NCBI GenBank assembly: GCA_905178155.1
Contig: CAJINV010000003.1
Coordinates: forward strand, 8,597,097-8,661,096
Origin: Amoebophrya sp. A120
Lineage: Eukaryota; Protista; Dinoflagellata
Reading direction: 5' to 3'
DNA length: 64,000 nucleotides
Notes under the pieces: generated by a model
Told to the model about the DNA's origin: nothing
Seen by the model: the letters and a program-made list of their open reading frames with translations, nothing else
Database searches by the model: none
Part shown: positions 1,385 through 50,894 of the stretch, one piece after another
Numbering within the stretch: the first letter of the stretch is position 1
How the letters are laid out: each line of letters begins with the position of its first letter
Made by a program: the position numbers and the translations under genes

Positions 1385-2201
1385 TGATTTTGTCGGCGCC
1401 GAAGTGGTCGCGACGAGTGGGGATGTCGTCCCACCTCGCAGAATACGTCGAGTCTTGGTCGAGGTATCTACTTACTTCCATTCCAGTTCCTGAAAGCGGT
1501 ATGTCATCCGTGAAGTACGAATCGAAATCCGGCGAGAGCCGTAGCCCGGCGTACGCTGCGTTCACAATCGGAGGAGAAATCGCTATTTGGCGAAAGTCAA
1601 ACAGTTCCCCAGGAAAACGAGAAATCGGGGCAGCTTTTGCCAAGAAGTACCCGGCTGCAATTTTGTTTCGCCTACTTTTCGCCTCTTTTGCAGCCAAGGG
1701 GCGATGCAAAGAGGCCGGGTTTCTTTTCTCAGTTGCCTGGTGGAGGTCGAGGTCGGTCTCGATGCCCCGTCTTTGACTTTGGGCGTCCTCGACCATCTGC
1801 TCGTTTATTTCCGCTTCTATTGCTCTTCTGCTTGGCTTTGGCCAGCGCAAATTTGGAGAGCCAATTTGAATTTGTGCGGTCGGCCAGCGCAAATTTGGAG
1901 AGCCAATCTGTTCCGGCGTGTACACGCGGCCTTCCTCTTCGGCCTCACGGTCACGAAAGTTACCGATTCGCTCCCCCGCGCCAAGCAGCTTGTTCAGCTC
2001 CGCCAACACTTCAATCTCGTCGTTTGCGTGTGTCGGGAACCGGTTGGCGCGGCGGTTCTCGTCAACTTCCTTCAGCGGTATCTGGTGAAGAGGTTCTCGG
2101 ACATGCGCATCCCACATCATGTGTTCCTGGTCCATCGTGTTTCTGCTTTTGGGCGAATCGGCTCCCCCGATATTTGGCGACAGCTTTTTCGCAAAATGCA
2201 A
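1371..2201 (-). CDS. Hypothetical protein exon(s)
   Basis: 276-codon ORF with protein-like composition and an internal duplication QIGSPNLRWP x2. No family recognised. Confidence 0.45.
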   Translation of the reverse strand: MHFAKKLSPNIGGADSPKSRNTMDQEHMMWDAHVREPLHQIPLKEVDENRRANRFPTHANDEIEVLAELNKLLGAGERIGNFRDREAEEEGRVYTPEQIGSPNLRWPTAQIQIGSPNLRWPKPSRRAIEAEINEQMVEDAQSQRRGIETDLDLHQATEKRNPASLHRPLAAKEAKSRRNKIAAGYFLAKAAPISRFPGELFDFRQIAISPPIVNAAYAGLRLSPDFDSYFTDDIPLSGTGMEVSRYLDQDSTYSARWDDIPTRRDHFGADKINIIR

Positions 2202-3850
2202 ACCAATTTGACGCTGTGCCGCCCACCGTATCTGATCTCTGTGCGCGTCCTACTCCGATGAACTCGCCCCCCACCCCCAAAACACTATTGTTATTTGGGT
2301 GATCCAAAAAGCACACGTCGGGGGTTCAAATAGTTCCTTTTTTGGTGACCAAGTAACGCGTTTTTTTGTTTACGTGCCTCACGCTCTCCTGGACCTGAGG
2401 GCATTGGCTTCTAAAATAGCGCAGCGCTTGACCTCAAAACCCTTGGTATTTCGGCGACAAAGTGCTGTCGGTATCTGCTTGGTCGCAGAGGATTTCGGCA
2501 GCGAGAACAGGACCGGGGTCGTCTTGGTAAGGTTCTTGGAGTAGTACTAGGCACCCGGCTGGGGAGGAAGCGCGCGCCGGCCGGTGGTTCACAAAGAGGT
2601 AGACGGGCATGAAGTTTCCGTGCGCGTAACTTTATACACCAAGGCACGCCTCAGCTTTTTGGTGGAGTAGTTGGAACAAAACAGCTGGCGCCAGCGCCAC
2701 ACTTAATTATTGGAATGAATTTTGCTGATCTACTCCAGCGCAGGAGAAGACATCTCGCGCGAAACTTCATACACCTTGGTATACTGCAGTCAGCGACGCA
2801 ACTTTTTTCGTCTTTTGTAGCCATCATGCTGCACAAGCAGATATAATGTCGGCGCTTCGCGTTCGGCAACCCGGATTACACTCGCCGGCGGCCCGGCGCA
2901 GATTTTTGGCGCGTTCCACATCGAACACACCATGCGGATTAGCGATCAAAAGGCGCTCGCCGAAGTCATCGGCTTTGCATATTAATTACGGATAGGCTTT
3001 TCTTGCCGGTAAAATAACGGCTTTTTTGGCGGCTGCAAATCCATGTACTATCCGATTTGCGGCCCATGCACATGCAAAACAAAAACAGCCGGGGCATATA
3101 GTTTGCTGCATGAATGCAGCTAAAGATGACCAAAACTCCTGCTACTTTATGCCGTGGCATAGAACGCCACGCGCCGCATTATGATGCACTTTCCGCGGAG
3201 GAGGTGTAATAGATAACGCGCCAAAGATCTTCGCGAGCTTTCTAAATTTGAAGAAGCCTCCGCTCACGGCTGACAGCATGGCAAACGTGGCGCGGGCCCG
3301 ATGGTTCGGGGCGATGTATTTGGCGACGTGGTTGGATCGTGTTCTCTCATAAAGATTTACCACCCCTACTTATCTCCTATTGCTTTGCCAGGCACAGCAT
3401 GCGTTTCTGCGGCGCCCCACGTCCTCTCGCTGTCGGGCATCTCCGCGACCAAATGCCGCGACTTTGTCGAAATGTTGAAGCAGCCTCTGCAGCCAAGCAG
3501 TGCGCTACTTGTACTTGGTGAGCAGATAGCGAAGCAATTGTGTATTTTCTGATCAAAATAAGGCGCGTCACTTGCTTACCAAAAGGCGCGCGTTTTCTTT
3601 TTGGTTGTTTAGTTATCCAATCCAAGAACGAAGCGAGCCCATTTGGCGTATGTCGGCGGTCCTCCCGGCAAGTCCACAGGACGCAGGCCCCGGCCCACCA
3701 AGGCGGAGCCGCAGCCGAGGAGAACCCAGCACAGAGAGCGGATGAACCTCGGAACAGGAGGGCCAGCCGACGAGCGCCAAAGAGGCGACAGCGCGGAAGT
3801 AAGATGTTAAATCGCAATTATAGAAGGCGTTGCGGAAGCCGCAAGGCAAC

Positions 3851-4036
3851 GTCACAAGCGTGACGCGAATAGCAACAAAATGCTGCAGTAGCCAAAGCTG
3901 GCTAGTGTCACAAGCGTGACGTCACAAGCGTGACGTCACAAGCGTGACAAAAACTAGCAACAAAGATGTTGCAGGAGCCAAAGGAGCTGGCGGGCCAAAG
4001 CTGCCGGTGTCACAAGCGTGGCGTCACAAGCGTGAC
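3851..4036. repeat. Cluster of ~6 GTCACAAGCGTGAC mini-hairpin repeats
   Basis: 14-bp motif (GTCAC-AAGC-GTGAC) occurs singly, as a triplet at ~3907-3948, and as a pair at ~4008-4036. Confidence 0.85.
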
Positions 4037-4301
4037 ATGAGTAGGCAAAACTGCCAAGCGAGCAAAGCTGCTCAATAGCTGCGAAAAAAGCAGGAAAATC
4101 AAAAAGCTTTGACCTTCCATCGCGCGCCCGCTGCCCGATTCATGCATGTATTGGATCCAGCTAACTAAATAGCTCCCGCGCCAAGGCTCGAGCGACGCTC
4201 ACAGGCTCGTTTACTCTTTCCTTGCTGCGTATGCATTTTAAAAAGGGCATGTGCTTGGGTGGGACATAACACGGGCGTTTTGGGGGGGGTGGGGGGCGAG
4301 T

Positions 4302-4460
4302 TCATTGGCGTACGTCCGAGTTGATGTCGTAGTGCTTCGTCTTTGCCACTTTGGTGCGGCTGTCGCCGTCATTGTAGTTGCCAGATAGTTTGTTCTGCGT
4401 TTCGACATTGTCGGGCTCTATTGCCTTGACGCGGGGGTACAGACGGTTTTCGTCGTAGGC
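4302..4460 (-). CDS. Host gene A, terminal exon (AYDENRLYPRVK...DVRQ*)
   Basis: Acceptor cccccatAG at 4462-4461; 53 open codons ending TGA. The preceding intron 4461-4562 is GT-AG in phase 0. Confidence 0.65.
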   Translation of the reverse strand, partial: AYDENRLYPRVKAIEPDNVETQNKLSGNYNDGDSRTKVAKTKHYDINSDVRQ

Positions 4461-4562
4461 CTATGGGGGGAAAGCTGGGAAATGTTTCGCACCTATATCG
4501 TGCTAGCTCGCACGGCAGACCGTGCTAGGTATTACGAGATAGGCATGAAGCGCTTGCACTAC

Positions 4563-4720
4563 TTTATTTTTCGTTGATACGTAACTGCGGTCCGCTGGAA
4601 ATGGTACGTGGCTGTCGCCACTATCGCCGAGCGGTGTGATGCCGTGTGCCTCTCTGCTCGCGAAATTACGGACGACGTGGCTGCAATACTGCTTGAGTTC
4701 GGCGTTGGGACATGTGCGGA
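4563..4720 (-). CDS. Host gene A exon (RTCPNAELKQYCSHVVRNF...STKNK)
   Basis: Open frame that joins in frame to both neighbouring exons once the introns are removed. Confidence 0.65.
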
Positions 4721-5191
4721 TGTCAGTTTTGCGCACGTACGTGCGTGCGAAGCGACTTTGTGAGATTGGCGCTTGCGCGCGCGCCGAGATTTTTGCGAGG
4801 AGAGCGCATGCATGCTTCCTGTTTTGGAAAGTGCGCGCTCGCGCGAAGAGTCTGTCCGGAGCGCACGCCACGCGTGCAACACTTAGTCTGCGATCGGGCG
4901 CACGATCCTGCGATCTTGCACGTTTGCGATCGCAAGCGCGCACGGGAGCTCTGTTCGGACCGCGCGCGCGCGCAAGGCTTGGTCTGCGGTCGCACGCTCG
5001 ATCCTGCGATCTCGCGACCTTGATTGCGACTGCAAGATCGCAAGCGCGCGCGCAAGGCTTGGCTTGCGATCGCCGCGTGCGCGCGGGCCTACGACTTTGC
5101 GATCGCGCAAACGTCTGCGCGTGCGCGTTCGCGCGCAAGCGCAAATCGCGCAAAGTTGCACGCACGCACTAGCACGCACGCAAAACTCACA
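4721..5191. mobile_element. 471-bp TIR element / introner-like non-canonical intron
   Basis: Imperfect ~60-bp TIRs (tgtcagttttgcg... / ...cgcaaaactcaca); 3-bp direct repeat GGA at 4718-4720 and 5192-5194; internal gcgatc repeats; GTGAGT donor on the minus strand; removal restores the frame. Confidence 0.8.
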
Positions 5192-5578
5192 GGACATCCA
5201 AATTTTTTTGGGGCATACAAAAATTTTCCGGTGTCAAAATTTCATAATCGGGCAGTTCCAGTTCCTGTGGCCCTTTGCGCTCCTTGAAGACATATGTGTA
5301 GCCATCTATCATACGGTACCCGGTTTGTTGCCTTTTATCATCCTCCTGGTCCTGACCACCACCACCCATCCTGCGTCGATCTGTAACTACCTGCGACAGA
5401 GAACCACTTTGCTCGACCCAACGGTCGCCGCTCTGAGTTTCCACTGCATCTGGAAGCTGGCTCTGCCAAGCGGTATAGAAGCCTGTGCCACTCAACAAAG
5501 TTCCGCCGAGAATCAATCGGTGGCTGTCGTCGACTTTTTGTTCTTGCGCATCCGGGTGGAGCCAGCCCTTGCCCTCAT
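5192..5578 (-). CDS. Host gene A exon (EGKGWLHPDAQEQ...PQKNLDV)
   Basis: Part of ORF 5187-5609; in frame with exon 29105-29289 after removal of the 23.5-kb element. Confidence 0.7.
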
Positions 5579-5579
5579 C

Positions 5580-5844
5580 TATGAATGGACAAGTTGATGT
5601 TCGCGACATATTGGCGAGAGGAATAAATCCGGGTTAGGTGCTGAATATATTCAGCGAAGGTGATGAATAAATTACGGCCGCCACCGCAATCTGTTCATCA
5701 CCCAACGCGTTTACTCAGCACCTAACCCGGATTTATTTGCTCGAAGATCAACCGATGATCAACACGAACCGAAAAAAACTGTGATCTCGAATCACGGCGC
5801 AAGCATTAAAATAGTTGCTGTTTATAGTAGAACCACAACTATTT
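5580..5844 (+). repeat. Left TIR of the giant element, with an internal long hairpin
   Basis: Reverse complement of 28839-29103; internal stem aataaatccgggttaggtgctga / tcagcacctaacccggatttatt at 5622-5737. Confidence 0.95.
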
Positions 5845-6899
5845 TTTTTTTCAACCGATTCTTTGTGCAACTAGGCGGTGTCGGGGCGTCTTCGCGTCAA
5901 GCAATAGCAAACCGAACAAGACATAACGACCCTGCGAGATCCATCTATCATCACGACCGACCTAGAAGTCGTCGCGAAGAAATTAAATTATTCTGCTTGG
6001 ACATGAAGACATCTCTCTCACTGTGATGCGGCGCATGACTTTTCTGAATTGCATCGACGCAATAACTGCTAGAGCTGCCGACAACTGGACTCAGGTGATG
6101 GCAGGCACAACATCAAAGATCGAGTATTATGTTTGTGTTGTATTTTTTGTAGCTGGACATCAACACCGAGTACCGAGATAAGTGCGCATGTGATCGTAGG
6201 AAAGGGAGATAAGCGAAACCGATCGACACCGATGGCAGGGCAGCAACGCGGATGGGAGGCCTGGATGGCGAAGGTCGTCACCACATTGCAACAGATGTAG
6301 ACACACCTAGAGACTTTTTCAAAACGGCACCAAGCTTGCGACTATGACTACAGTGACAGGCTAAAGCTAAAGCCGAGACCTTCGCGACTTGTCGGCGCAC
6401 GCGGACCACGCGAGCTATAAAAGGGCAGCTGATTGAAGTCTTACTGATACCAACAGGCTGTGAGAGCTTCCATCATTGCGCATTCATTGTTCGCATGCGT
6501 AGAGATTCGCTGGCGACGACATCGATGTCAGTTCCCATGTAGTGTTCATCTGTCTGGCTTCGTGCTTGTTTTATTTTGTATGACCAGAGTCCACTTTCTA
6601 TTGTGCCACTACGTCTTCGTCTGCATCGAGACAACTGCTCGCACTGTTGTCATTGTCGGCGTGGTAGTAGTGTACGAGATTCGAATAGCTTCGCCCGCTC
6701 GGTGTGACATCGCAGACTTGCGCTAGAAGGCGCATTTTTCACAGAGTTCACCTGCCGCCAGGGCGCGCGGTCCGTCGTTTTCGGTAGCAACTGAGAAGAA
6801 CACTGCTTCTGCTGTCGTGCCGCAGTGCGTTTCCAGCTGCAAGGAAACCCAGCCGGAAGCACATTGAAAACGCATCCGCAGCGCGCCCCAGTTTGGGAG

Positions 6900-7381
6900 C
6901 AGCACCGGAAGGGTGCTTGGCTTTTCTCCCGAGCTGTTAGCTGTGTTTAGCATAGGTATTCTGGCTACCCAGAGGGAAGGTTTCCGGTAGGATATTGAAA
7001 GAGAATCTGCAGGCTAGGAGGAGGATATTGGAAGCGGATGGGAGTTTTTTTTTTCCCGAGTTGCTGCGTTTAGCACAGCAATTCTGGCTACCTGGGGAAA
7101 AGATTTCCTGGTAGGATACTGGGAGGGTATCTCCAGGATAGTTGGAGGATATTGGGAACGGATGGGAAAAGTTCGTCTGTTTGCCCGCGCTGCTGTGTTT
7201 AGCGCAGCAATTCTGGCGACCTAGGGAAAAGATCTCCCAATAGGGCGCTGGGAGGGTATCAGGGTAATGGAGGAATAGTGGCATAGTGGGAAGGTGCGGG
7301 TAATGGGATGGAGAATTTTGTTTGTTTTCCCCGAGTTGCTGTGTTTAGCACAGCAATTCTGGCTACCCAGGGGAAAGATTT
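6900..7381. repeat. Degenerate ~130-bp tandem repeat x4
   Basis: gctgtgtttagcacagcaattctggctacc...gggaaaagat recurs at ~6940, 7063, 7192 and 7338. Confidence 0.8.
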
Positions 7382-10311: not shown

Positions 10312-12260
10312 GAGTGGGGTAACAATGAAATCCTTATCCGCCCCCCCGGCGGATAAGCCGGGGGGGGGCCCCCCCCCGGCTTATCCGCCGGCGGGCTGTC
10401 CCGAAATAGGCCCCATGAACTGGCCCGGCCCCGGCGCCGTTTGGATGAGCCCGAGGGAGCCCCGGCCGACACACGGCACGCCGCTGGTGCTTAAGCTTAT
10501 GGCTTTTTTAAGTAATGCGCAGGAAATTGCCAAACGTCGCACCACCGGGATTGATAGAGCAAGAAAATGAAGGGACGCAGCGCGTCAATGTTTGCCATGC
10601 AAACAAAACGAGGCGGAAAGACGTGGCGTTGGGAATTCACACACAGAAACTAGATAGCTTCACACGCCGGGGCCTGTTTAGCGGGTTTGTCAATAGAAGC
10701 CCGGGCCTCGTCATGTTCCAGACAGAAGAGACACACACACAGACCGAGTCCGGCAGCGTGCCTCGCAAACAAGGGCGCCAGGCTTCACACACCTGCGAAC
10801 AGCCTTGGGGCTGTTCGCAGGTGCAAGCACCTCGCTGGCCTTGATTGCAAGCTACTCACAAGCCCCGACGGCTACCAATTCCTTCGCGCTGAAAACAGGC
10901 CACGCAAGACATCACCACTCAGCCCGCAGCCCCATGCAAGTCCCCGGAGCTGCTGCCCCGGCGACCTGGCGCCATGCGTGCCGCGCTGCGAGGCGGCCGG
11001 GGTGTCGCGGGTGAGCCAGCTCGGGGGTGGTAGCTGGTAGCGGGCTGCGGCTTGCCCAGGGCCACAGCCCGCCGCACTGGGCCCCGGGGCCTTTGCGGCG
11101 GGAAAACCCCACCGAGGCCCGAGATGGGAGGCGGGAAAACCTGTAATGGGAACCGAGAAAACCTCACTGGACACAGGGGCCTGCTTCGCATCACTGATTT
11201 CGGGCGGGCATTTGCGCCGCGCCGGAAACCTAGGGCACAAACATTGGCCGGCGGCGGTATGAAAAAAAAAGTCGGTGAACAAAAGTAGAGCGCGCGAGGC
11301 TGTCGCCCGCGCGGCTCAATTGTTTGCTTGGATGCCTATGGCCGTGGCGGAAGCTATTGAACCGCGCTGCGGCAAGCAAACACGCCACCAGCACGGCCCG
11401 GCCCGCGGCCCAGGAAATGGCTGCCCAGCCTAGAGCCCGCTCCTGTCTCGGTAGAATATAAGTCGAGCACACCACCGGGGGGAATTTTACCACGGACGGA
11501 GCCCCACATTTATAAGGGGCGAGCCCTCGGCGCGCAGCCTTGGGCGTTGTCGCGGCCTGTTTCGGTGCGTGGCAGGCTGGGCCCATTGAAAAAGCAGGGG
11601 GGCCCATGGCGGGCAGTGGGCTTGGGTTTCGGTTTGCACAGGCGCACGCCCCTAAAAGGCGGGCGCGCGCAAGATGAAACCCTCAGCCCGTTGCGTTTCA
11701 TTCTACTCGCTTCGGACCCTAGGCCGCTGCCTGCAGACATGCGTGCCCAAGAGCAGGGCGGCATGGCCTGGCAAGTAAGCACATGGCCCGAAGGATATAA
11801 GGGAGGAAGCCCGGTGGCCCTCACGCTGGGAGTTTACTGCTGTGGGGCAAGTTCATTCTGGCCCTGGCCTTGTGGGCCCGCTGCTATTTGCTGGGCCACT
11901 TCTTGCGTGGCGAATTCCCCAAGTTTTTGCACCTTTTGCGTGGCAAGTATGTATCTGCTGGCGGTTTTTTTTAAAGCAGTCCCGGCAGTGGGTGTGGGGC
12001 CTTCAAATGCTGCGCCTGCTACTTTCAAAGAAACACCACAAAGGCCGGCGGCGTCATGCCGTCGGCCTTTGTGGTGTTTCAAAATCTTCCAACAACATGC
12101 CGGATGCTGTCGGCATTTCCGCGTCCTTCAGGCGATGGCAGCGCCCGGCCACTTTGTCGCGGCTATACCGGTACGGCCCGCCGGCGGATAAGCCGGGGGG
12201 GGGCCCCCCCCCGGCTTATCCGCCGGGGGGGCGGATAAGGATTTCATTGTTACCCCACTC
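10312..12260. mobile_element. 1.95-kb non-autonomous TIR element nested in the giant element
   Basis: Perfect 85-bp TIRs at 10312-10396 and 12176-12260; TTG direct repeat at 10309-10311 and 12261-12263; each TIR holds a G9C9-centred palindrome. Confidence 0.9.
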
Positions 12261-15420: not shown

Positions 15421-16320
15421 GGTTCGTAAATAAGTAAACACATATGGCGAAACCGAAACACAAATGTATAGCCGTTTGTGTATGGGTCGAGGATAACATC
15501 ACTCGCCGTGGTATGGCGTGCAGCTTTTTTCTCGCCCAGTGTAGCACGCAGAGTAACACTATTCACGACGAAGCAGAATGCTTAACATCTACAGCACATC
15601 ACTACAGTGGTAAAATGCACAACGGTTTAAGTGAATCAAAACAGCAGCGGCTAAATATATACTTCACAAAAGCCGCGTAAGTCTTTTCGTCGGCACGGCC
15701 GCCGAAGCGACGAAAATACCCCAAGAAGACCGCGCTGCTCTCGGTGAACGAGTAACACAGGTAGAGGCCCGCGGAGATCTCGAGGTCGGTATGGCAGGAC
15801 TGGCAGGCGGCCTGATATTTGTGTTAGGTGTTCGACGATGCAGGTGAAAATGGTAACAAGGCGCAAGTGAAAACGATGACAGTTGTGACAAGCATGAACG
15901 TAAAAAGCTGGCAAGAAGCTTGGCATTGCTGTGGAAGTTGAAGCCCTAATATAGAAGAAAAAACATGACGCCTCGCTTCGTTTTCTTTCTCTCAGAAAAA
16001 AACACAATATACCTGGAAGAGCTCCAGTCTCGTTTTCTTCACGCCCGTTGTGTGGTTGGCCAAGTACTGCTGGCACTGTTTGTCGAGCTGTTTATAAATG
16101 TTGTCGCTGTGACTTTGTTTGAAGATTATCACCCACGACGTGCAGTTGTGCGCTCACTTCGATCAGTGCTAAATTTGAATTTGTGCTGAGTGTACACATT
16201 TCAGCTGTAAAGTATAAGATTATCACGGAACCCCTTAGGCAAATGTTGCAGCCTAGACTTTTTGATTTTCATTTCAAAAAGTAGCTGACTCCTTAGCCCT
16301 AAACTTTATCTCGGACCAAG

Positions 16321-17238
16321 ATGAAGTCAAAAGGCAAAACCGCAAAACCTAAATCAACGAAGAATGCCTCTTCGACTAGCGTGGGCACTTCCACTACGGC
16401 AGTAGCGATGAAAAAGCGCACGCGCAAAACTAAGTGCACAACTCCGACGATGGTAACGACTCCGCCGAAGAAAGCAGTGCAGAAGGCGGCACAGACAAAT
16501 AAGAACACACCAAAAAGCCAACCAGGTGCATCGCCGAAGAAGCAAGAAAAGAGTTTGGAGGTGGATGATGGGGAGGAGATGCGGTCCGGGAGTATGAACG
16601 TGCCTGATTGCAGGCGGTTCGCGGGCCAGTTGCTACATTCTTGTGGTCAGAAGAAGAAGCAGGGAAGAAGGTGCCAATTGTGCTGGCTTCTCCAGTGCCT
16701 CACCGGCAGGCGAGGCATGGACGTTCGAGCACTACAACGCAAAGACTTTATGCTCGACAAAATTCGATGTGGCAGTTCGAAGCTTGCCAAAAGGAAAGGC
16801 GGTCGCGGAACTTTGACGCAAGTCCCGACCAAGACGGTTCCCGCAATGCGGGATTTTTTGGCTGCTATGCAGAAAGAGTTTGACGAAGAGGGCCTAGAAG
16901 ACAGCGACCCTCTGTTCGACTTCTCCTCCGAAGCCATGGCCAAAAAAATCAGAGAAGCCCGCGCCGACTTCAAGTGTCGCGGGAAGTTGTCCTGCGAGCC
17001 AGAGAGAATAACTTCGCATACTCCGCGCAGAAGTTTTGCTACCGAACTCTACAGGCAAGGCACCGCTCTAAGTACAATTCGCAAGCTTACGGGGCATAGC
17101 AGCTGCGACACCCTCATGAGGTACATCAATGGAGACATGTCTTTTGCGGTCGAAGCCGTAACAAAATTGTCGCGGAGAGCCAGCCCCGGCGGGCGACTGC
17201 CTAAGTTCCCGCTATTTTTTGAACCGCCCAAGCCCTAG
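16321..17238 (+). CDS. Tyrosine recombinase (phage integrase/XerC-type catalytic domain)
   Basis: Catalytic motifs in order: LTGRRGMDV (R), KRKGG (K), SHTPRRSFAT (HxxR), LTGHSS (H), LMRY (Y). Intact and intronless, with a basic N-terminal tail. Confidence 0.92.
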   Translation: MKSKGKTAKPKSTKNASSTSVGTSTTAVAMKKRTRKTKCTTPTMVTTPPKKAVQKAAQTNKNTPKSQPGASPKKQEKSLEVDDGEEMRSGSMNVPDCRRFAGQLLHSCGQKKKQGRRCQLCWLLQCLTGRRGMDVRALQRKDFMLDKIRCGSSKLAKRKGGRGTLTQVPTKTVPAMRDFLAAMQKEFDEEGLEDSDPLFDFSSEAMAKKIREARADFKCRGKLSCEPERITSHTPRRSFATELYRQGTALSTIRKLTGHSSCDTLMRYINGDMSFAVEAVTKLSRRASPGGRLPKFPLFFEPPKP

Positions 17239-21756: not shown

Positions 21757-23706
21757 TCAACTGCCCCTACTGCAAATCAAATAAACAACGAGTACTAGTA
21801 TGTACCGGAGGCCTGCCCGATACATCTTTATTGCAGGAGCCATTTTTTTTATCAGCTCCACTGCGCTGCGAAGTGATTCTGTCAACTGCGTCCCTGGATG
21901 GCAGGTGAGGAACAACGGCGCCAGATACTGCTGCAACTCCACCGACATGGGCTCCCCCCTTGCCATTTTCTCCACGTCCTCCTCGAACTCCCCAAGCAGC
22001 ATAGACAAAAAGTCTCCAAGCTGATCTTCTTCGAACAGCATCAACGCCTCCGCGGCAAGCCGACCACTATCTTCGCGGAGTAGGTAGCTAAACAGGAGGG
22101 GCGTGGTCCAGAATTGTGTCTGCCGCCGTGGTAGTCGGATCCGCACGCTGCAGAGCAAAAGAAACCCCACGCAGTCCTCCGGCCGCGTAGTCGCGTGTTG
22201 CGCGAACTCCTCCGCGAACTCATCTTCATCCATCGAAAAAACCCGATGCATGGCTTGCGGTCTCGCCAAGGTCCATATCCGAAAGCAATGCTCTTTGATC
22301 TAGCTTGGTCTCGCTGTGCGACCGGTCGGCGCAGGAGAAGGAGGAAGCAACCGCATCGACGAGAGCCCAAAAATCTTCCCTCTCCACCGCCTCCCTCGCC
22401 GCAGCTGCTGTTTTTCTGTTTTCCTCTTTTGCTTTCTTTGGTTCCAGTTTCTTCATCAAATCCAAAGCCTTATCCTTTGCCGCCCGCAAATCCTCGCAAC
22501 GCGACCGCATGGCTTGCCACCGGTGGCTAGCGTATTCGCGGATTCGAATTTTATCCGGTCCTTCGTCCGGACCCCACATGCATCGTGGCGGCGTTAGCTA
22601 CCTTCTTCAGCGCGATGGCGAAGCTCTCGTCGTTGTGCCAGTTTGCAAATTGTTACCAACTCCGATTCCATCAGCGATAGTTGGCGACGGTTACGCAACA
22701 CATTCCGGGCGTAGAAATCGACGTAGTAAGAAGATGCTTTCTCTCCGCGGCGGATCTCTTCCCTTCGTTCTCGTCGCAGGGCGGAACAGATATCACGGAG
22801 TCTTCGAACACCTTTAAGACAATCCGACCCGCCGTCGGTGGCGCAGCAGAAGCACACTATGGGATCTGATGCCCACCTTCCCCGAGTCGCGCCAGGCACC
22901 GGAATCAGGTTGCCAGCTGTGTCGTAAATATCACTGACGAAACTTCTAAACCCGCCGGCTCCCCTCTTGCCCTTCGGCGCCATCGTTTTTACGAAGATCT
23001 GATCGCCGACGACGCGGACGCAGATGATGTCGGTTGCAACCATCTGGCCTTTTCTGAAATTCGTCTTATCCGGCGCGATTCTCACTGCCAAAAACGGCCG
23101 CCCGCGCTGCTCTATTTTCCCGTCAGCTGCTTGGTGTTTTTGTTCAAGTTTTCCTATCTTTCCATCCGCTTTGATCAGGATCGTGGACAGTGATTCACTT
23201 TCCCGGAAGATGTACTCCATCAACTTCCCCTCCGTTGTTGCATCCAAATCCAGCAGCGTTCTTATGTCAAGCTGGCTGCTCAGATCTAAAAGAACTCCGC
23301 ACTTGTCTTCCGACCGTTCACAAAATTTCCGAAAACAGTCCCGCTCTTTGTTGCAGCTCGCGATCATCGCATCTATCTGCTTCAATGCGTCGCGGAAGTT
23401 GTTTGCTGTTCCGCGGGTCGGTATTGCTCGTCGCAGATTTGTTTTACTGGGAGGAGTGGAAGCTTGGGCATCCAGATTCGACAGGTCAATTTGTTCTTGA
23501 ATATCTTCCCTCGTCACAACGCGCCCGCTCGTATCTTTCCCCGGAGAAAAGACGCGATCGCCTGCCTTTGTTGGCATTGGTTTTCGAGTCAGAAGCGCGC
23601 GTCGCCCGACGGACTTGCGATTCGAATGCCGCGAACACGCTCCCCAATACTTCCACAGCAAGTCGAACTGTGTGAAGTATGAGTTGATGAGTTTGCCATG
23701 CGCCAA
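21757..23706 (-). pseudogene. Divergent hAT-like DDE transposase, frameshifted
   Basis: Motifs in hAT order: LAVRIAPDKT (D1 ~23069), CCATDGGSD (D2 ~22835), SHRWQAM (RW ~22520), GTQLTESLRSAVELIK (ERxFSxxxxIK-like, E ~21878). Split over 3 frames; CxxH not recognisable. Confidence 0.55.
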
Positions 23707-25089
23707 AAATAAAACACAAAAACGAAATCACTCGGAACAAATATCACAAAGCTGGATACGCAGACGAAGTAGAGCTAGAAGTTTAAGAGAGTCACATCAT
23801 AAAGCGCGAGCGCGACAGTCATGATTTTGGTGGTGAAAGCTACGCCAGCGAAATCTGTCAACAAGACCCGACTTTCAACAAAACGAAAATTTTTTTTTGT
23901 ATCAGGCGAACGGGGCAGCCCGGCCCGAAAAAGTTTCTAGCATTCGCCACCGCTACGACGCGCGCTAGCTTTTTCCGGCCTCGCTGACTTATGAAAAAGT
24001 GCGCGCGCGCTAGCTGGTGGCGCGGGGCAGCTAGATTGCTTGTGGCCGTGCGTGTGGCTTCACCATTGCCGCCCCGGGTCAGAGACATACCCAACCGGCG
24101 TTCGCAAGCCATCAGCTGCGATTGGCGGATGCCCTCATGAACGACCACCAGAACCCAGGGGCGCCGGCGTTTTAGCCGTCTGGCCTCCCGTTTTGCAGCG
24201 CTGCTTCGCCTCGCCGAAGGCTCGCGCCCTGTGCTTCGCTGGGGGCTTCCATACGAACCCGCCAGGCGCGGAAGGCTCGGAAGAGGCCACCCTGCCACCT
24301 GCGGTTGGGCCCTCCCAAAAAACGAAACGGCACGCGCCAGCGCCGCCCATATCGGGCGAGGCTTTGGCGGCGCATGCGGCGGGCCCGGTCATGTAGCGGC
24401 CCGCGGGCCAACCCGCAGCAAAGATTCGCTGCGCGGGAGCCCGACAGATAGTTGCCATCCGGCCGGCGGGCGAAGGGCCGGGCGGCCGGCCGGCCGGGCC
24501 GTCCCTTGACCCCGGCCCTTGACCCCGGAGCTCGACGTGATTTTCCCGGGGTTTTGAAGCCCAAAAATGACCCAAAAATGGCCGCTAAATCGACCGAGAT
24601 AGCCCCTTGACGTTTTTGATCAACAAGACAGGGAAAATGGCCGCGCGTCGACCCCGGTTGTTGACGTGAGTGCTCGGAAAGGCCCGGCCATGTCGCCGAG
24701 GCCTCTCGGAGAAGGCATCCCGAGCCGGATCGCGGTTGCCTGGCTTCTTGGGTTGCGTGGGTGTGGGGTGGCATCGGGCACGCAGCTGGCTGCCCGGCGC
24801 GGCTGTGCCGCCCCTCGATGCGAAAGCGGAAGCGTAGTGGGCGCAGGTGGGCGGCCCGCATTCGCCGACCGCGCCAGGTTTCGGAAGGGGGCACGGGGGC
24901 AGGGGGAAGGGTTTTTGCCTTGGGAGGATTCCCAACGTGGCCCGCGTCGCAACCGCAACGAGCTGCAAAAAAAGCGCAAGCGGGGCAAAGGAAGCCAAAG
25001 CACAGCAGTGCGCCCAAAGGTAGCTGCGATGAGCATGCCCCAGCCCAAGGCCCCGAAGGTGGGAGATGGGACCTGCGCCGCTATGAGGC

Positions 25090-26640
25090 TTCATGACTTG
25101 CACGGCCGGCGTGGTACACGAAGCGCACAAAGTGCTTGAGGTGGAAGCGGTTCGACGCTTGTCGCGCGCAACTAGAGGCGTAGTATGCCCCTTGGGTGTC
25201 ATCAACAGTGCCAGGCCCTGCGAGCCCCAGCAACAAGAGGCGACCGCGCCAACTCCCTTCGCCTTATTATCGGGAGAGGCGCGAGACCCAGAATTTTTTT
25301 TTCGTTTTGTTGAAAAGAAGGCCTTGTTGACAGATTTCGCTACCGTAATAGCTCACGCAGATGCTGCCCAGGTGTGAACCGTAGCGCATATACCTTCCTA
25401 GCACTCGTCCCAGGAGTGGTAGCAGCCACAAACTGCAAGCGCTGCGTTCTCTTTTGATCAGATTCAAGCTCTCCCATCATGTTGATGCTGACTAATTCCG
25501 CAATCCGTTTTTTTAGTTGTTGCCGCTCCGGGTCCTGCTCAGCCTGCAGCTGATTTTGATTTTTGTTTGCGAACTTCAACGAGAAAGCACTGCGGTTGTA
25601 TCGCGCGACAATCATAATCAATATGAAAACGAGTATCAGAATCAAGCCCAAGCTCAAGAAGAGTCAGAGCATAGAGCTTCATTTTCAAAAACAAAGCCTA
25701 TAGCTTTGCGCTTGCTTTTGCTTTTGCATTACAATTAGAATTAAACTGCATGGAAACGAAAACGATTATGAACATGCATGAGAACGCGAGCGAGAGCTGA
25801 GACGCTTTTTCTATACGAGAAGCAAAAGTAGGAGCACCTCTTTCCGGTGCTGTTCCATCTCCTCCGCGGCAACGGCAGGCAGCTTAATGCTCAGCCGCTT
25901 TACAATTTCTGCTTTGGCGAAGTGGCGGAGTTGCATCAGGTCCGGGCAGGCTTTTGCGATCTTGGCCGAGCCAGTCCATCCGTGCGCTCTGCTTGCAACC
26001 ACCTGGCAAAAGCTTTCTGCAGGGGCCGCTTGTTGATGGCCGACTTGTAAGTGAGCAAAGTCTTTCCGTTGTTCACTGCAAATGTTTGGCTCTCCGAATG
26101 CAGATTGTCCGAGATGATCGCGGCGATGTCGTCAAAGGATTGCAGTTGATCGAGCCGTCTGCGGATGGGCGATGCAGGCGGCTGAAAATCGGGATCAATT
26201 GCATGCGTTGCCGGTTGCCGGCGGCGGAGCTACCTGCTCGGCAGCGTGGAAGTTGTTTGCGACGGCTGAGCTCATCTTCGACGATGTAAATGATGCTGCT
26301 ATCTATTCCGCAATCGCCTGAAATAGCGTTGCCATGTATCACGTACACGCAAGGAAAAACTTTTATTATAGAACTACGCTCCTGATGTTCCTGCTCATAG
26401 TTTTCGTGTTCGTTGCACAGCGTGCAACGCACAGGCACTGGCGCACTCAGGTGGCGCATCGTCTGTATCTCTCTGTACGACTACGACCCTGCCCGATTCA
26501 TGTTCGTCCTCTGCAGTTCTTGTTCTTGCTGTACAGATGTGCTTTTCTCTCCCCCGCCGATCATGTGGCGCTTTGTAAAGTCTCACAAAGCCGACGAGCA
26601 CGACCCTTGACCGACGTTCTGACTTTGAGCCTGAGACGAT
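25090..26640 (-). pseudogene. Decayed multi-exon coding fragments
   Basis: GC-rich blocks with protein-like stretches interrupted by stops, alternating with AT-rich gaps. Confidence 0.3.
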
Positions 26641-28838: not shown

Positions 28839-29103
28839 AAATAGTTGTGGTTCTACTATAAACAGCAACTATTTTAATGCTTACACCGTGACTCGAGATC
28901 ACAGTTTTTTTCGGTTCGTGTTGATCATCGGTTGATCTTCGAGCAAATAAATCCGGGTTAGGTGCTGAGTAAACGCGTTGGTTGATGAACAGATTGCGGT
29001 GGCGGCCGTAATTTATTCATCACCTTCGCTGAATATATTCAGCACCTAACCCGGATTTATTCAGCTCGCCAATATGTCGCGAACATCAATTTGTCCATTC
29101 ATA
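28839..29103 (-). repeat. Right TIR of the giant element
   Basis: Reverse complement of 5580-5844. Confidence 0.95.
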
Positions 29104-29104
29104 C

Positions 29105-29289
29105 CCTCATTGTTTTTCTCGCATAAATCCACAGACCTTTTGCCATCGGCTTCACTCGCGGAAGGAATCTTTAGAACTTGGACACCCATTGGAAAGAATG
29201 CGAATGGTTTTCGAATCAATTTTGGCGCAAGCCCAACAACCACCGCTGGGCGGCCAATCGCCTGCCCTGTGCGTTCCCGGTCCCATGCC
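29105..29289 (-). CDS. Host gene A exon upstream of the giant element (AWDRERTGQ...LCEKNNE)
   Basis: Acceptor ttttttttgcAG at 29291-29290; open frame; followed by GTATGA at 29104. Confidence 0.7.
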
Positions 29290-30655: not shown

Positions 30656-32523
30656 TGCAAAAGCGGCGCGGCGACTTTTGTTTCTTCTTCTTCCTCTGCG
30701 ACTTCTTCTGTTTCCTCTGCGACTTCTGTTTCCGCTTCACCACGATCACGATGATATAGAGCAGGAGCACTCGGACTCGTTACAAATAGGGGCCGCGGAT
30801 CTTCTGCGGACTTGTAGCCAAAAAAAGCCGGGCGCCGGCCAAAAAAAGCGCGAGGGCCAAGAGATAACCAAGCCGCCCCGGCCGCTTGGGTTGTTCAGAG
30901 TAAATCAAGGCGCGCAGCTTCCAAGCACAAACAAACTCAAAGTGCGGCGCTTCTGCGGCATTTCTGACGCCATGGCAATGGGCGTTTTCTTGCTGTGTGC
31001 TGTGGCTGTCGTCTCATTGTCTAATTACTTACAACATACTGGCGCTGCTGCCAAGCCGGAGGGTCCCGCCAGAGCGAGGTGTAGTAGCCACCCGATTGGG
31101 CCCCAGCCCCCGGGGTCACAGTCACGCGGGGAGGGGCGCGCCCATGGATTTGTCTATAAAAAACCCGCGCCCGCTGAAAGTTGCCCCTTTTGAGGAATAT
31201 TCATGGGCGCTGCGGAGTTGTGGCCAATGGTCCTCGAGCTTGTAACGCAGCCCACGTCGGATTCGGAAAAAGAAAAGAGTATAGATGCGATTTGCGAAGG
31301 TGTGGCCGGTTCGCGGGAGTGGCCGCGGGTTTCTGAGTCGGGGACCCGCGGGTATTGTGCGGATATGCTTTTCTGGAACCAAAAAGAAATCCGCGGCCGA
31401 TGCTAAGCTAGTATGGCTCAACTTTTCCGCTCCGCGACGTAAGTATCCGTCTTCACAGAGGTTGTCTCGATATCCGCGCGCTCCGACTCAGAAATCCGCA
31501 GGCGCGGCTATGTCCGCGAATCAGCCATACAACCATCAAAAGTGCTGGCACTTTCTTGCTCCTTTTGCAAGACCTAGAGCGGGTCAGAAACTGGCGACTC
31601 AATCGCAGTGCTATGACCTCTAGATTTGGCAACAGCGCCTAGGTTTGGCATCCGCCCGCGCCGAGTCCCGCGCCGGACTCAACAACTTGAACTTTTAAAG
31701 CTAGAAAACAAATAAATAAACATGGCAGCCGCAGGCTTCGCGAACCGACCTCCGGTGCGTGCCCAGGTTTCTTGAGGTCCTTGAGTTTGCTGCCATCCTC
31801 TGCACGGCAAATGGGGCAGCTACAGGCCTGGCTGTACCGGGTCCTTTAATTACGGGGACAAATAAGAGAGCTCCAATAAAGAGACGAGACAGCGAAATAA
31901 GTTCTGCTGCCATGATGATGTCTTGCGATGTTGCCTTTTTCAAAGCAAGCGCAAGGGCAAGAAGCATTTATGCTGCCTCTGGCATGCGCTTGCGCAGAGT
32001 TCGGATCTGGGGCCGTATCCGCACAATATCCTTATGATCCCGATTTTTTAACGACACCACTCCAAGGCATACTGCAGCCGCATTTCTGGGTGCCCGGTAA
32101 CGTAGCTGAGGAGCGTTTCCATTGACCTTGTTGTTCTCTGGGCATCCCAAAAAGAGCTCCCCTCTCCTAGTCGGCATCGCAGGTGGCTTCCGCCCCGCAC
32201 TTGCGCCCTCGATTTCTCCATATATTAGTGGGCTTGCGTAATGCGGAGGCGCCGCTGGGTGCATAATATCTGGTTCATGTTTTTATTTTTATTATTTTTT
32301 TTTTATTCTTTATTTTGCTTCAGCTCCAGCGCCTCCTGCTCCTGCATCTGCTGGGACTGTGCCTGTGAATGCTCCTCCCAATAAAGTCGGTTTTGTTTAC
32401 GTTCTGTTTGCAGGGACGGACGAACATGACGACGAACTACGCAACAGGAGGAGGAGGGGAGTGGGGTTTTGCGCACATCAACACTTCGGCCCGTAACGTC
32501 CACGGATTTCTGACCACACCGCT

Positions 32524-33369
32524 CGGGATCCAACGCCCCGGCCCGGGGCGTTGGATCCCGATCCTCCGCGACCGGCTGGCGAATCTTGATCCCCATCCGA
32601 CGCCCCGGCCCGGGGCGCTGGATCCTCCCTTCCCAACCTGCTGGCCAACCTCGACTCCGGCCCATCCAACGCCCCGGGCGGGGGACAACCCCAGTCGCCA
32701 TCCAATGCCCCGGCCCGGGGCGCTGGTTGGATCCTCCCCGACCGGCTAGCCAACCTCGACCCCCTCCCGAGCGACGCGCCGGCCCGAGGCTTTGGACGGA
32801 CCCGTCGATGGCAGGCTGGCAACCCCTGTCGCTCGCCATCCAATGCCCCGGCCCGAGACGCTGGACCCGATCGCCAACCTCGTGCCCCATCCGACGCCCC
32901 GGCCCGGGGCGCTCGGTCCTCCCCGGCCTGCTGGCCAACCGCAACCCTCATCCCACGCCCGCCCGGGACGCTGGATCCATCGACGGCAGGCGGACAGTCC
33001 TAGTGGCCTGCCATCCAATGCCCCGACCCGGAGCGCCGGATCCCCCACAACCTGCTGAAGATAATCTTGATCCCCATCCAACGCCCCGGCCCGGGGCGCA
33101 GGATCCTCCCGGGGTTGCTGGCCAGCCTCGACCCACCCTCGCCGCCCCACGCAACGCCCCGGCCCGGGGCGGGGGATCCGTCGATGGCAGGTGGACAGCC
33201 CTAGTCGCACGCCATCCAGTGCCCCGGCCCGGGGTGCTGGATCCTTGGCGACCTGCTGGCCAATCTTGATTCCCATCCAACGCCCCGGCCCGGGGCGCTG
33301 GATCCTCCCTGACCTGCTTGCTGGCCAGCCTTCACCCCCATCCAACGTCCCGGCCCGGGGCGCGAGATC
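32524..33369. repeat. Array of ~14 palindromic ~32-bp units with related ~30-bp linkers
   Basis: Consensus catccaacgccccggcccggggcgctggatcc; the first copy is a perfect 18-1-18 palindrome at 32524-32560. Confidence 0.9.
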
Positions 33370-33541
33370 CGTCGTCGTACGACCTCACCGGAGGTCGTAC
33401 GACCTCGCCGGAGGTTGTACGCCCTCGCCGGAGGTTGTACGACCTCGCCGGACGAGGTTGCACGAGCTCACCGGACGTTGTACGACCTCGCCGGAGGTTG
33501 TCCGACCTCGTCGGAGGTTGTGCAACCTGGCCGAAGGTTGT
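33370..33541. repeat. 20-bp tandem repeat (gtacgacctcgccggaggtt) x8
   Basis: Direct inspection. Confidence 0.9.
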
Positions 33542-34363
33542 CCATCAAACCCACGGCCAGGAGTACCGCAGACCAGAGGGAAGGAAAACCCCCGGGCCTC
33601 CCGGACGGGAAAACTCCATGCTCCGGGCGCCCCGCCTTCACCGAAGGCTGGCTCACCTTACGACGGGCCATGTTCCGGGCCCCCCGGGCGTGGGTGTGAC
33701 GAGGGTCCAGGACGCAAAAACGCCGCGGCCCCCCGGCGCAAAAGTTGTACACATGCGCAGCCCCGGGCAGCGGCAGAGTTGCGCGCTTTGAAACCGAATC
33801 CAAAGCGCCTCGGCGGTCCCGGGCACGCACAGAAAAATTCTGAAGAACCAGCGTCGCGCAGGAGGTGTGCGTAAGCTCCCTCCGGCCAGACAATCGGGAA
33901 GCGATCGCGAAAGCTCCACGCCAGCCAGGAAATAAAGAACTCCGACTCCCCCGAAAGGGAAGGAAGCTGCGGACCTTCCGCAGGGGAGAGGCCCGCCATC
34001 GCTTCCGAAGGCGAGAGGAGAGGTCCGGGGCTGCCGAAGGTAAAAAATAAAAAGCTTCGGAGCCTCCCCAGAAAATCAATCGGGTGCTCGCTTCTTTAGG
34101 CGAGCGAGTAACTGTTTAAACGTACTTCTATCAACTCCCCAGAAAATCAAAAATAGAGATTTTTCATTCGGATAGAGCATTGCTCGTCGCGTTGGCCGCG
34201 GGCGCCGCAGACGAGGTCGCTGGTTTTGGTGTTGGGGTGTAATTCCTTTCTTTGCTGGTGGTTTGTTCTCGACTGTAATTCAATGCCTCCGTCGTTCTTC
34301 ATCTTCACAGCAACATGCTTTGCAAAAAGAAAAAAACATATCACCGCTACTACTCAAGCACCA

Positions 34364-35743: not shown

Positions 35744-36649
35744 GTGATATTTCGGTGCCAGTATCGAATATATTTCTAGCCATCGTGCTAGCGGCTGTGG
35801 CCAAGTCCTCCGTGGCCCAATATGGTGGGGGCGAGAGGCATGTATGAGTTTTGCGATGTATTGGCGGAAATACATCGCAAAAAATACATCATACATGGAA
35901 GATTTGAGCAGAACGACCTCACTTTCGTACATTATATATACATCACACATTGTACATCATACGTCGCAAATTCTCCGCTGTAGGTACCTCGTACACCATA
36001 CATCACACATCACACGCCGCAAGTTCTCCGCTGTAGGTACCTCATACATCACACATCGCAAGTTCTCCGCTGTAGGTACCTCATACGTCATACGTCACAC
36101 ATGGCACATCATACATGGCACATCATACATGGCACGTCATACATGGCACGACATACATGGCACACCATACATGGCACATCATACATGGCACATCATACAT
36201 GGCACATCATACATGGGGCATGGTGTGGCGTGGTGTGGTTTGGTTGGCTGTGTGGTGCTGCTTGGTGCTGCTGCTTGCTTGCTGGTTTGCTTGCTGGTTG
36301 TCAAAGCGCCGTTTTGACAACCAAGCCAAGCCAAGCCAAGCCAAGCCAAGCAGAAGCCCAAGCCAAGCAGCAGCACCACCAACACCAACACCACACCAGA
36401 CCGATAACAACTAGCCAACAACTAACCCGCGAGAACACAAAGGCAACCGATGTAGGGAATCCAACGCGCAATGCACGAGTGCGCGGGATGTACGATGTGC
36501 GTATACATTAATGTACAGCCGTACAATGTGCCATGTATGATGCATCAATGTACGATGTATGATACAGCTCTGATCATTGGAGAGGAAAAAAGAGGACTGC
36601 AACGGAACGCTTAGGGCCTTGAAAAATTGAAGCCATGCCCGGGCATGGA

Positions 36650-36693
<44 letters not shown>

Positions 36694-37156
36694 CACATAC
36701 ATACATACATACATGATTCGCCCTGTCTGGGGTACGTGACGCTCTGTATTTGATCGCGACACCTGGAAAGCGACCCACTCAAGCGATTTCTTCGGACGAG
36801 CAAGAGTGTACGACGACCCTCTGTGAACTCTACTGGTCTGACAAGACCTGTGGATCATCGCAAGAGGTGAACGTCGGACCCTGGAGGAGCCTATGCTTCC
36901 CCGCAGGGGGCGGGCGTTTGCTTTCGCTCCGGCAATCTCTATTCCTTGTTCCTGATGGCTGCATCAATGCGGTTCTCGCTTCGAGCGACTTGTAGATCGA
37001 TTATGCCACGGTCTTTAGATGTGTGGGCGCTCAGCCGCAAGCTGACTGCGCCGCACATCTCGCATCTCGCCCTCTAGCAGATGCCGACGCGTGCCTTCGA
37101 GGTACGGCCCATACAAAACTTACTTATTGCCTGGGGCTGGAGCCCCCGCCTGGGGG

Positions 37157-40100: not shown

Positions 40101-41355
40101 AGTAACGCCAAAGCGGCGCCATGCTGGAATTCGGCTTGCACCCCCGGAGGAATTTCTTCCAGGCTGCGCTCCTGATGATCTTCTCGAGCCGGAGGGCCTC
40201 CGCGTCGTCTCGATTGCGGTAGGCCTCTCGTAGGGCGTCGATTTGTTCACGCCAGGCATGCCGTTTGCGAAATTGCTCCTGGGTTTCAGCTTTCATTCCC
40301 CGGTGGGTGCTCTTGTGCCACGGCGACGCCGCCCCCTGGACCCGCTCAACAACGACGCTGATCGCTTTGCTCAGGTCCGTGAGGTCCAGGTCGTCTTCGC
40401 ACGCAGCCACGGCTTCACGCAGTCGGGCCCGGAGTGCTTCGCACTGCGCTTGCTCTTCTGGGTCGGTGCTGTCATCTCGGGGCAGCGCGTGCCTCTCTTG
40501 TGGTGGCGGCTCTTCCAGCGCCTCATGACAATCGAGGCGGACTAGGACGGGGAGGTGGTCGCATGTGTGCGGACTTGAGGTATCCGCCCACACTGGTGGC
40601 AGCCTTCCTAGATCAAGCGAATTGTTTCCCCGCCCCTGCTCCCCTAGTTCGTCCCATTCGTCGTCAACTTCTAGTGCCGCTCGGGCAAGCACCGGAAAGA
40701 GGCACCCCGCGCCCGGTTTCCAGACGACTCGATCTGGGCACGTTGCTGGGGCGCAGGACGGATAGGCAAGCATTCCAGGCGGGGTGAGATCCAGACAGCC
40801 CGCGTCTGCTCCTGATCCCTGGTCTAGCCAGCGCGTGAACCAGGTGCGCCTCGTTTTCCCACCCGGGTTGAAGTCGCCTACTATTAGCACGTCTTCATCC
40901 TCCTTTGCAGGTTGGAGGATGGAGTGTAGCTGCGAGTCCGTTGGCGTTGTGCCCGGTTTGATATACAGAACGCAAATCAAAGCTGTGCGACTGTCATCCC
41001 CTCTTCCCGGAAGCACTATCCTGACCCAGGCCACTTCTATGCTCTTCGACCCGTTCCAGGCCGGGATGGACTTGCTTGCTGGGCAGACGACTACGCGCGG
41101 CCCGGCGTATATTGCAAGAGAGCCGGCCTGCTTCCCTTCTGTCGGGCGGACGAATTCCGCCACTCTCCTATAGTTCCGCTTCTCCCAGGAGCGGTCTTGC
41201 TTTTCAGGCACTTCTTTCCCTGCGAGGGTTTCTTGAAGTGCAACCAGATCGGCTCGCATGCGCAAGCAATTGTTGATGATAGGCACCGACTTACTTCTGA
41301 TCCCGTTGACATTCCATGACGCGACGCGGAGTGCGCTATCTGTCGCGCTAGGCAT
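37157..41355 (-). pseudogene. LINE ORF2: APE endonuclease - reverse transcriptase - RNase H - CCHC knuckle, with one frameshift
   Basis: APE: SWNVNG, LQET, GDFN, DHLPV. RT: KAPGAD, RPISL, DISGALD, GIPQGGALSP, FADG (for FADD), LGVWFD. RNase H: SDGA, AERAGL, DSQS, HVHSHTGVGANELVD. Knuckle: CPKC...H...C. Frameshift near 39790-39820. Confidence 0.92.
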
Positions 41356-41379
41356 GCCGGGATCTTGTACGATGACCAG

Positions 41380-46080: not shown

Positions 46081-46328
46081 AGATAATTCTCGATCGAAGG
46101 GAAAATTAGTCGCCGCTACTTGATCTTCATCATCATCTCTTGCACATTTATACTTTTTCTTTGGGTCACTGTATATGAGGCTTTGTCTGTACTCGATCTT
46201 GACAAAATTTTCGGAAACAAGTCACATGGAAAGTAGCACGAATCGGAACTACTGCGCTACCGCTGCCGGGCGAGGCGTCAACTGCTTTCCTTGACCTTGT
46301 GCAGTGACGAGCAACCCTGGCAAGCTTG

Positions 46329-50000: not shown

Positions 50001-50894
50001 GTACTTGTGCCGAAAGGCGTCCGGAGCTCGACGACACTAGATCGCAAACAAATTAGGAAAAGTATCAATGAAGGGCAACTACTTTTAGTCATAGTCACTA
50101 CTTGCAATTGTATCCGCTGGCGCACCCAAACCCAATAGATTACAACACGGACGTCGACATCACCATGACCGTGAGGAGCAGGGCCACAGCCACCCAATTT
50201 TAGCCGAGACGCGTTCATCTTCTGCCATCTGCGGGGGCCTCTTGCTGCTGGGGAGATTTGGCATCTCTCTCATGGAAATGGACGCCCAGCATGCCTGTCT
50301 TTAGCTCGTGCGCGATGATGCAGATGCTCTGCAATTATGCAGCCAGTAATTATAATTTCGGGGCCCGCCACCTGCGCCTGGCCCGTGGCGCTGGCGACCA
50401 ATAGATGCTGGCCTGCCCAACGGCAGGCTTCTACTCATGAAAAAGGTAGCGGCTGGCTGGCTATGCTTGCGCTTCTGCTTCCGACAGAGTAATTGCCTAG
50501 CATGCCGGCATTGCATAGGCTACCACTACCAGCGTCGCGGCAACGTCAAGGATGGCTACCGTACTAGGCCTTTTCTTGTCGCGCTGAGGACAGAACGCTT
50601 CCGCGCCGGGCGGGCCGCTCCGGGGAGAGGCTGCTAGACTTTCAGCAGCTACCACCTCGCCAGCAAACGGCGCTAGACTAGTTACCAACTGACGCCAGAT
50701 TACTTCTCGCGAACAGGCTGAGATCTCCCAGCCAAGGGCTATTGTCCTAGTAGACGCAGACGCGGCTACAACTTCCCGGAGTTGTTCCATCGCTACTCTT
50801 TTAATTTCTAGGGCTGTGCGCCTATGTGCAGATCTTGCTACTACCCCCACTCGAGCACATGAAGAAGAGTAGCTGCTGGGCGTGCTGGTGACTA

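Follow-up and report, generated by a model that had tools for sequence, protein, structure and literature searches.

A 23.5-kb inverted-repeat element of Amoebophrya sp. A120, probably spliced out of its host gene as a non-canonical introner-type intron

How is a mobile element of 23.5 kb cut out of the gene that it interrupts? The question is raised by a 64,000-nt stretch of contig CAJINV010000003.1 of Amoebophrya sp. A120 (the window), in which a 23.5-kb inverted-repeat mobile element lies inside a minus-strand host open reading frame (ORF). A preliminary description of the locus proposed that differences between the terminal inverted repeats (TIRs) had been selected to tune one end as a canonical splice acceptor. 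We favour another answer, to which we give a probability of roughly 0.68: an old DNA transposon insertion is spliced out as a non-canonical introner-type intron, and the cuts are likely positioned with reference to the foot of the TIR hairpin (1 nt ahead of it and 4 nt past it, written -1/+4) and not by a branch point plus AG.

In the part of Farhat et al. (2021, PMC7789003) consulted, more than 60% of the introns of Amoebophrya A25 and A120 are non-canonical, with inverted and direct repeats and a hairpin model; the introner repeats of A120 start with TAT, the GT-TG class makes up 1.3%, and the longest introns reach 35 kb in A120 and 90 kb in A25. The introner elements described there have inverted repeats of 8-20 nt, direct repeats of 3-5 nt and no internal transposase gene. 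The same part reports most spliceosome proteins but no detected U1 snRNA for Amoebophrya, and no transposase found in A120; it describes the place of splicing as variable with respect to the hairpin.

We compared four of the nine listed sequence runs (X1, X3, X4 and X7) over positions 2000-7000 of the window. X1 is a DNA-like run covering this interval. X3 and X4 consist of contigs, both from one sample, which is different from that of X1. We call them transcript-like because their RNA status is a guess, and none of the nine runs is recorded as RNA; as contigs, they do not reveal strand, level or minor forms. Their view of the element's interior extends to position 7000. X7, a raw RNA run, had 0 reads over 2000-7000 and therefore has no bearing on splicing.

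The outer element occupies 5580-29103 and is the longest inverted repeat pair in the window, with TA at both ends. Its terminal inverted repeat begins with TAT and is hairpin-capable by predicted fold, the predicted energy of the TIR-TIR duplex being about -495 kcal/mol. The TIRs differ at 7 positions, in 6 events (5593, 5619, 5620, 5701, 5791, 5798 and 5800). An eighth difference, 5579 versus 29104, is the first base beyond the TIR arms. The depth of X1 was 39.5 across the TIR against 19-21 beside it, which fits two TIR copies only, although depth is no copy number and short shared ends would escape. Further inside, at 6674-6985, X1 depth was very high (~960 in one bin) and the X3/X4 contigs were diverged; this segment is the end of a high-copy repeat. 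An Rfam search of 1300-32000 returned no matches. The features are collected in the table.

Table. Features of the outer element, its cargo and its host gene (window positions; TIR, terminal inverted repeat).
Feature	Position	Strand	Remarks
Left TIR	5580-5844		265 nt; 97% identity to right TIR; acceptor side for the minus-strand host gene; starts with TA
Right TIR	28839-29103		265 nt; donor side
19-nt TIR sub-repeat holding CTAAC	5622-5640		Exact copies also start at 5719, 28946 and 29043
CT doublet	5619-5620	-	Right TIR has AG at 29063-29064
Downstream flank-repeat copy	5572-5579		8 nt, 7/8 against 29104-29111; first base is the G of the proposed terminal AG
Upstream flank-repeat copy	29104-29111		The GT donor takes its G from the last base
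Intron removed in X3 and X4	5576-29104	-	23,529 nt, GT..TG; only other register 5577-29105, GG..AT
Host exon upstream of element	29105-29195	-	5' end not mapped; loose ends of X3 and X4
Host exon downstream of element	5219-5575	-	Matched by X3 and X4, 0 differences
510-nt non-canonical intron	4709-5218	-	GT..TC, single register
123-nt non-canonical intron	4458-4580	-	GT..CC (or CG..GC)
2,067-nt introner	2247-4313	-	TA..TA inverted repeats at 2251/4312; six registers including GT..AC
Tyrosine recombinase ORF	16303-17238	+	PF00589, E 1.3e-11
Candidate DDE (hAT-like) transposase region	21760-23580	-	Three pieces, 22597-23580, 22229-22594 and 21760-22248; frames 0/1/0
Nested TA..TA inverted-repeat element	23841-25347		5-nt flank repeat 4/5
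Nested element with 137-nt inverted repeats	10312-12260		

X3 and X4 each contained one contig matching 2000-2245, 4313-4457, 4581-4708 and 5219-5576, with 0 differences over 877 exon bases. Both contigs left the window sequence at 5576 and continued with letters identical to 29106-29135 (30 of the 30 letters visible of loose ends 90 nt long in X3 and 241 nt long in X4). This places the joint at 5576|29106 or, equivalently, 5575|29105, and the skip of 23,529 nt equals the element plus 5. When the exons were joined, a frame of 616 codons was open. These results indicated that the outer element is absent from the transcript-like contigs as one intron and that a long ORF is restored. The exon contig by itself accounted for the depth of bin 5507-5673 (13.3 = 31.8 x 70/167 and 3.3 = 7.87 x 70/167), and X3 and X4 had depth 0 in bins 5674-6508; no second form was visible, though contigs drop rare variants. 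Neither allowed register gives AG at the 3' end, and one of the two gives GT at the 5' end. The AG at 5580-5579 precedes the joint by 3 nt and so falls inside the intron. The preliminary description had taken it as the acceptor; in X3 and X4 the acceptor maps elsewhere, an outcome that the description had itself named as contrary to its proposal.

The flanks of the element form a direct repeat, with 7 of 8 bases identical at a length of 8 nt and 3 of 5 at 5 nt. The chance of a 7/8 identity is about 4e-4 for that one length, and the insertion likely produced an 8-nt target duplication, in which the G at 5579 would be the single changed base. A 5-nt target duplication fits as an alternative but takes 2 changes, one per copy, against 1 change for 8 nt. 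With the element bounded at 5580 and 29103, both the G of the GT donor and that of the terminal AG belong to the flanks and not to the TIR. The terminal difference between the two ends, previously read as a TIR change that creates the acceptor, is thus located beyond both TIRs, within the direct repeat of the flanks. The joint also ignores the longest direct repeat: its ambiguity is 1 nt where a 7-nt repeat was available, which argues against slippage or precise DNA-level loss. What may be new is that the mismatched flanks leave only -1/+4 and -2/+3 relative to the stem as cut positions, with an in-frame scar.

On the acceptor side, a CTAAC does lie upstream at 5637-5633 of the minus strand (its A at 5634), and the next AG after it is the terminal one at 5580-5579, as had been described. 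Its letters stand, but it is not specific to the acceptor. The 19-nt motif that holds it occurs in exactly 4 copies, two per TIR in opposite orientations, and CTAAC was fully paired in the predicted local fold of the acceptor-side TIR (unpaired probability 0.0). Counted from the left end, the nearest minus-strand AGs lie 64 and 2 away, and the right TIR has an extra AG at 42. The claimed loss of this competing AG on the acceptor side was confirmed, with CT at 5620-5619 against AG at 29063-29064; it counts as one doublet event. X1 held the CT and AG versions at equal depth (21.2 of 42.2), and the difference is therefore no assembly error. In the right TIR, the AG extends a 22-nt tandem unit and is similar to the inner motif copy, so the CT of the acceptor side seems to be derived. 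The probability that 6 random events hit that AG on that side is 0.022 (a post hoc value for one element). Weak selection for loss of the AG is conceivable, the derived change being what is left in its favour. The next AG downstream was itself passed over, which is at odds with scanning from a branch point. Thus, of the proposal that TIR differences were selected for spliceosomal removal, the removal of the element as one intron held, whereas tuning of a canonical acceptor was not found in the data.

Three further introns of the host gene were missing from the same contigs. The 2,067-nt introner has a perfect 5-nt direct repeat and is removed without a scar, its skip again being the element plus 5. 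GT is the sole start dinucleotide common to all four introns, and the ends in that register are TG, TC, CC and AC, never AG. If offsets are measured from TA-type ends, the four introns have only -1/+4 in common, where those of the 123- and 510-nt introns depend on TIR ends assigned by eye. The predicted fold of the 123-nt intron has no terminal stem, and in the 510-nt intron the stem begins well inside the ends. For the two introns with a clear stem (2,067 and 23,529 nt), the allowed registers overlap at -1/+4 and -2/+3 only. A frame test of six candidate introns without RNA data put element plus 2 or 5 best in three, tied in one and not best in two.

Further TA..TA inverted-repeat elements of the window lie at 2251-4312, 23841-25347, 35821-44414 and 61686-62335; at 5 nt, the flank repeats of two are perfect and that of one is 4/5. 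Scanning for TA..TA inverted ends had no discriminating power, with 170 pairs versus 103-144 in 5 shuffles. The 8.6-kb element at 35821-44414 has TIRs of ~95 nt and contains a LINE-like retroelement with endonuclease (PF03372), reverse transcriptase (PF00078) and RNase H. A 631-aa minus-strand ORF precedes it, on the minus strand its start reads GT together with one flank base, and it is likely another large intron. A 14-nt array just inside its 35821 TIR is similar to sequence near 44200, as expected of subterminal repeats. Tandem arrays in 32490-33550, 35940-36230 and 59622-59897 have units of ~65, 20, 14 and 27 nt. Two TA..TA elements, at 61686-62335 and 46048-46374, lie between minus-strand ORFs, and removal of element plus 5 preserves the frame there; as the TIR is preceded by T or C, the predicted starts are TT and CT, not GT. 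The long minus-strand ORFs in 44329-61640 (631, 752, 476 and 333 aa) have the orientation of the host gene and had no Pfam matches. At the other end of the window, a single N at 1289 with a 100-nt duplication alongside (510-609 and 1290-1389) resembles a scaffold join. A stop ends the host ORF at 1374, yet the X3 contig runs ~6.8 kb beyond position 2000; the gene therefore probably extends further, and there may be an assembly error near 1289.

The course of events that we propose for the outer element begins with a cut-and-paste insertion, long ago, that would have made an 8-nt target duplication. In the pre-mRNA, the TIRs would pair into a 265-bp stem, which would join ends 23.5 kb apart and mask CTAAC and the internal AG. 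Cuts at -1/+4 would then take out the element with 5 flank bases, and 3 extra bases (one codon) would stay in frame. The donor would be made of the last G of the target and the TIR's own TATG; TATG is present in both TIRs, so TIR asymmetry would be unnecessary for the donor. Most TIR differences, probably including CT/AG, would reflect drift after insertion. The GT starts suggest the spliceosome as the catalyst.

A different use of the AG has to be weighed against this stem-based measurement. In the GT register, an AG stands 3 nt before the 3' end (-5/-4) in three of the four introns, which an AG-assisted mechanism would explain equally well: the spliceosome would recognise the AG formed by the last A of the TIR and the first G of the flank and join 3 nt downstream, like a TG-AG tandem, and selection would have favoured both the terminal G and loss of the internal AG. 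The 8-nt duplication, with 5579 as its one changed base, and the seemingly derived AG-to-CT change both fit such selection. U2AF35 and U2AF65 are listed for Amoebophrya in the part of PMC7789003 consulted, and human TG acceptors adjoin an AG according to the available part of PMC2374985. The same part has human TG sites never as the sole acceptor. We nevertheless regard this mechanism as unlikely, because the 510-nt intron, which has a single register, lacks an AG at that place, and the other introns end in AC, CC and TC, not TG. Repeats ending in TA, moreover, need only a G as the first flank base, so that three of four is unremarkable.

It is still less probable that the X3/X4 sample carries an element-free allele, in which case the joint would be the pre-insertion sequence with a 5-nt target and would show no splicing of the present copy. 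That the sample is not the one of X1, that a 5-nt duplication with one change per copy fits, and that the interior was followed no further than 7000 would all agree with this. However, TIRs differing at 7 of 265 positions make the insertion old, yet the exons are identical over 877 bases; the contigs also lack the three other introns, two of which have no perfect direct repeat; and the 5-nt model requires the extra change given above. A search of metagenomes with the host exon found no relative and thus no empty allele.

That a canonical GT-AG intron ends at 5579, with its branch point at 5634 and TIR differences selected to that end, is very improbable. GT at 29104, CTAAC at -58 and no AG between CTAAC and 5580-5579 are all present, the product would likewise be in frame, and a minor form may hide where contigs drop rare variants; but both of the two runs holding the joint have a non-AG joint, CTAAC is symmetric and predicted to be paired, and a YTRAY-type word was found in the last 100 nt of just one of the three other introns. 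Least probable of all is reverse-transcriptase template switching across the hairpin, since the joint, despite a very stable terminal stem flanked by direct repeats of which 7 nt were available, has only 1 nt of ambiguity, restores the frame and comes from runs showing no unspliced TIR sequence.

The stand-alone tyrosine recombinase has three close relatives (45-60%), of which one is named (Amoebophrya sp. AT5.2, 56%) and another is a cluster with a protist transcriptome member; a search in viral contigs found no relative. The named relative and the intron style fit an Amoebophrya-like host. The gene may belong to the outer element or be a Crypton-like passenger. The candidate transposase region was recognised by eye from spaced Asp, Asp, Arg-Trp and Glu motifs (D..D..RW..E), which we take to be hAT-like. 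In the Atlas, its 10 best named neighbours were all in the hAT clan, with scores of 0.78-0.83 (below 0.9) and a low recognition of 2092. The candidate had no homologue at near or greater lengths, none in JGI metagenomes, no Pfam match and no PDB sequence match. Single-sequence AlphaFold models were unusable (pLDDT 36.7 and 42.0), and fold searches gave only generic helical rows or rows with E > 1. For the C-terminal piece, where a hAT domain would be expected, neither Pfam nor the Atlas gave a match, and no CxxH was seen by eye after the second Asp of the translation. The hAT-like character of this interrupted candidate is a lead only, with which the 8-nt repeat and the subterminal repeats are consistent.

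Polintons and Polinton-like viruses are marked by a protein-primed polymerase, a packaging ATPase and capsid genes. Among 12 interior ORFs searched against PHROGs and Pfam, the recombinase alone matched; no capsid, polymerase or packaging ATPase was found, though divergent capsids can escape. Our initial reading of a Polinton-like element with a 6-bp duplication and a GT-AG splice leaving two codons was rejected in view of X3 and X4. The two nested inverted-repeat elements make up ~3.5 kb of the outer element. No convincing nested TIR pair enclosing the transposase candidate or the recombinase was found among the 25 longest of 137 pairs, so both may belong to the outer element.

The TIRs of hAT elements are usually far shorter than 265 nt. 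Marks of hAT elements given in the available part of PMC4763223 are an 8-nt target duplication and subterminal repeats. The outer element resembles them in its 8-nt flank repeat (7/8), its 19-nt motif twice per end, the D..D..RW..E seen by eye and the hAT-clan Atlas neighbours; it differs in having no profile, homologue or fold support and no CxxH, in a frame broken twice, and in carrying a tyrosine recombinase. A wider reading, tentative and in our view doubtful, would make it a decayed autonomous hAT-like master element, of a kind that published work on Amoebophrya introners lacks. Its mismatched 8-nt flanks would expose a stem-anchored ruler (-1/+4) for which neither AG nor branch point counts, and neither the direct repeat nor the length of the intron. 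Given a target duplication of 2, 5 or 8 nt, every TIR transposon with TA ends, including one of 23 kb bearing genes, would then become a frame-preserving intron in either orientation.

Canonical introners that co-opt the target-site duplication (TSD) were reportedly described by Huff et al. in 2016. In the part of Gozashti et al. (2022, PMC9860276) consulted, canonical introners of algae and core dinoflagellates co-opt the TSD, and whole-codon in-frame scars are possible. The outer element is like these in that the target duplication supplies some of its splice-site letters and its scar is in frame; in contrast to their GY-AG ends, it passes over an available AG by 3 nt. With the Amoebophrya introner elements, as far as the consulted part of PMC7789003 describes them, it shares non-GT-AG ends, TAT-starting inverted repeats and a predicted hairpin. 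For a direct repeat across the boundaries, identity is 3/5 at 5 nt and 7/8 at 8 nt. Unlike them, it is 23.5 kb long and has TIRs of 265 nt that contain sub-repeats; its duplication is likely one of 8 nt, and it carries a recombinase ORF together with a candidate transposase.

File 8 of Gozashti et al. (2025, PMC12130899), in the part available, notes "5-bp TSD, TA/TA termini" for one A120 introner family, and gives N-T starts for 892 of 1322 and 383 of 540 introns in two A120 families (sums computed here). Among 56 of the 58 A120 rows, one is Mutator, one Ginger and the others of unknown superfamily; hAT is the final class in none of these 56. The outer element is like these families in being a TIR DNA element with an N-T start and non-canonical ends. 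The families require several copies by the account consulted, whereas the TIR of the outer element seems to be present twice only. Our search of openly available literature found no gene-bearing Amoebophrya introner and no fixed stem offset, a weak negative; the size and the gene cargo of the present element may be new.

The consulted part of PMC7789003 leaves open how most Amoebophrya introns are spliced without GT-AG or a detected U1 snRNA, and what mobilises introners. Direct repeats usually blur the position of the cut; here, mismatched flanks narrowed it to two registers, and an available AG was skipped. With such flanks, existing genome and RNA data allow a positional rule to be tested directly. 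A gene-bearing element of 23.5 kb that is spliced like one of 300 nt would also hint at an autonomous partner.
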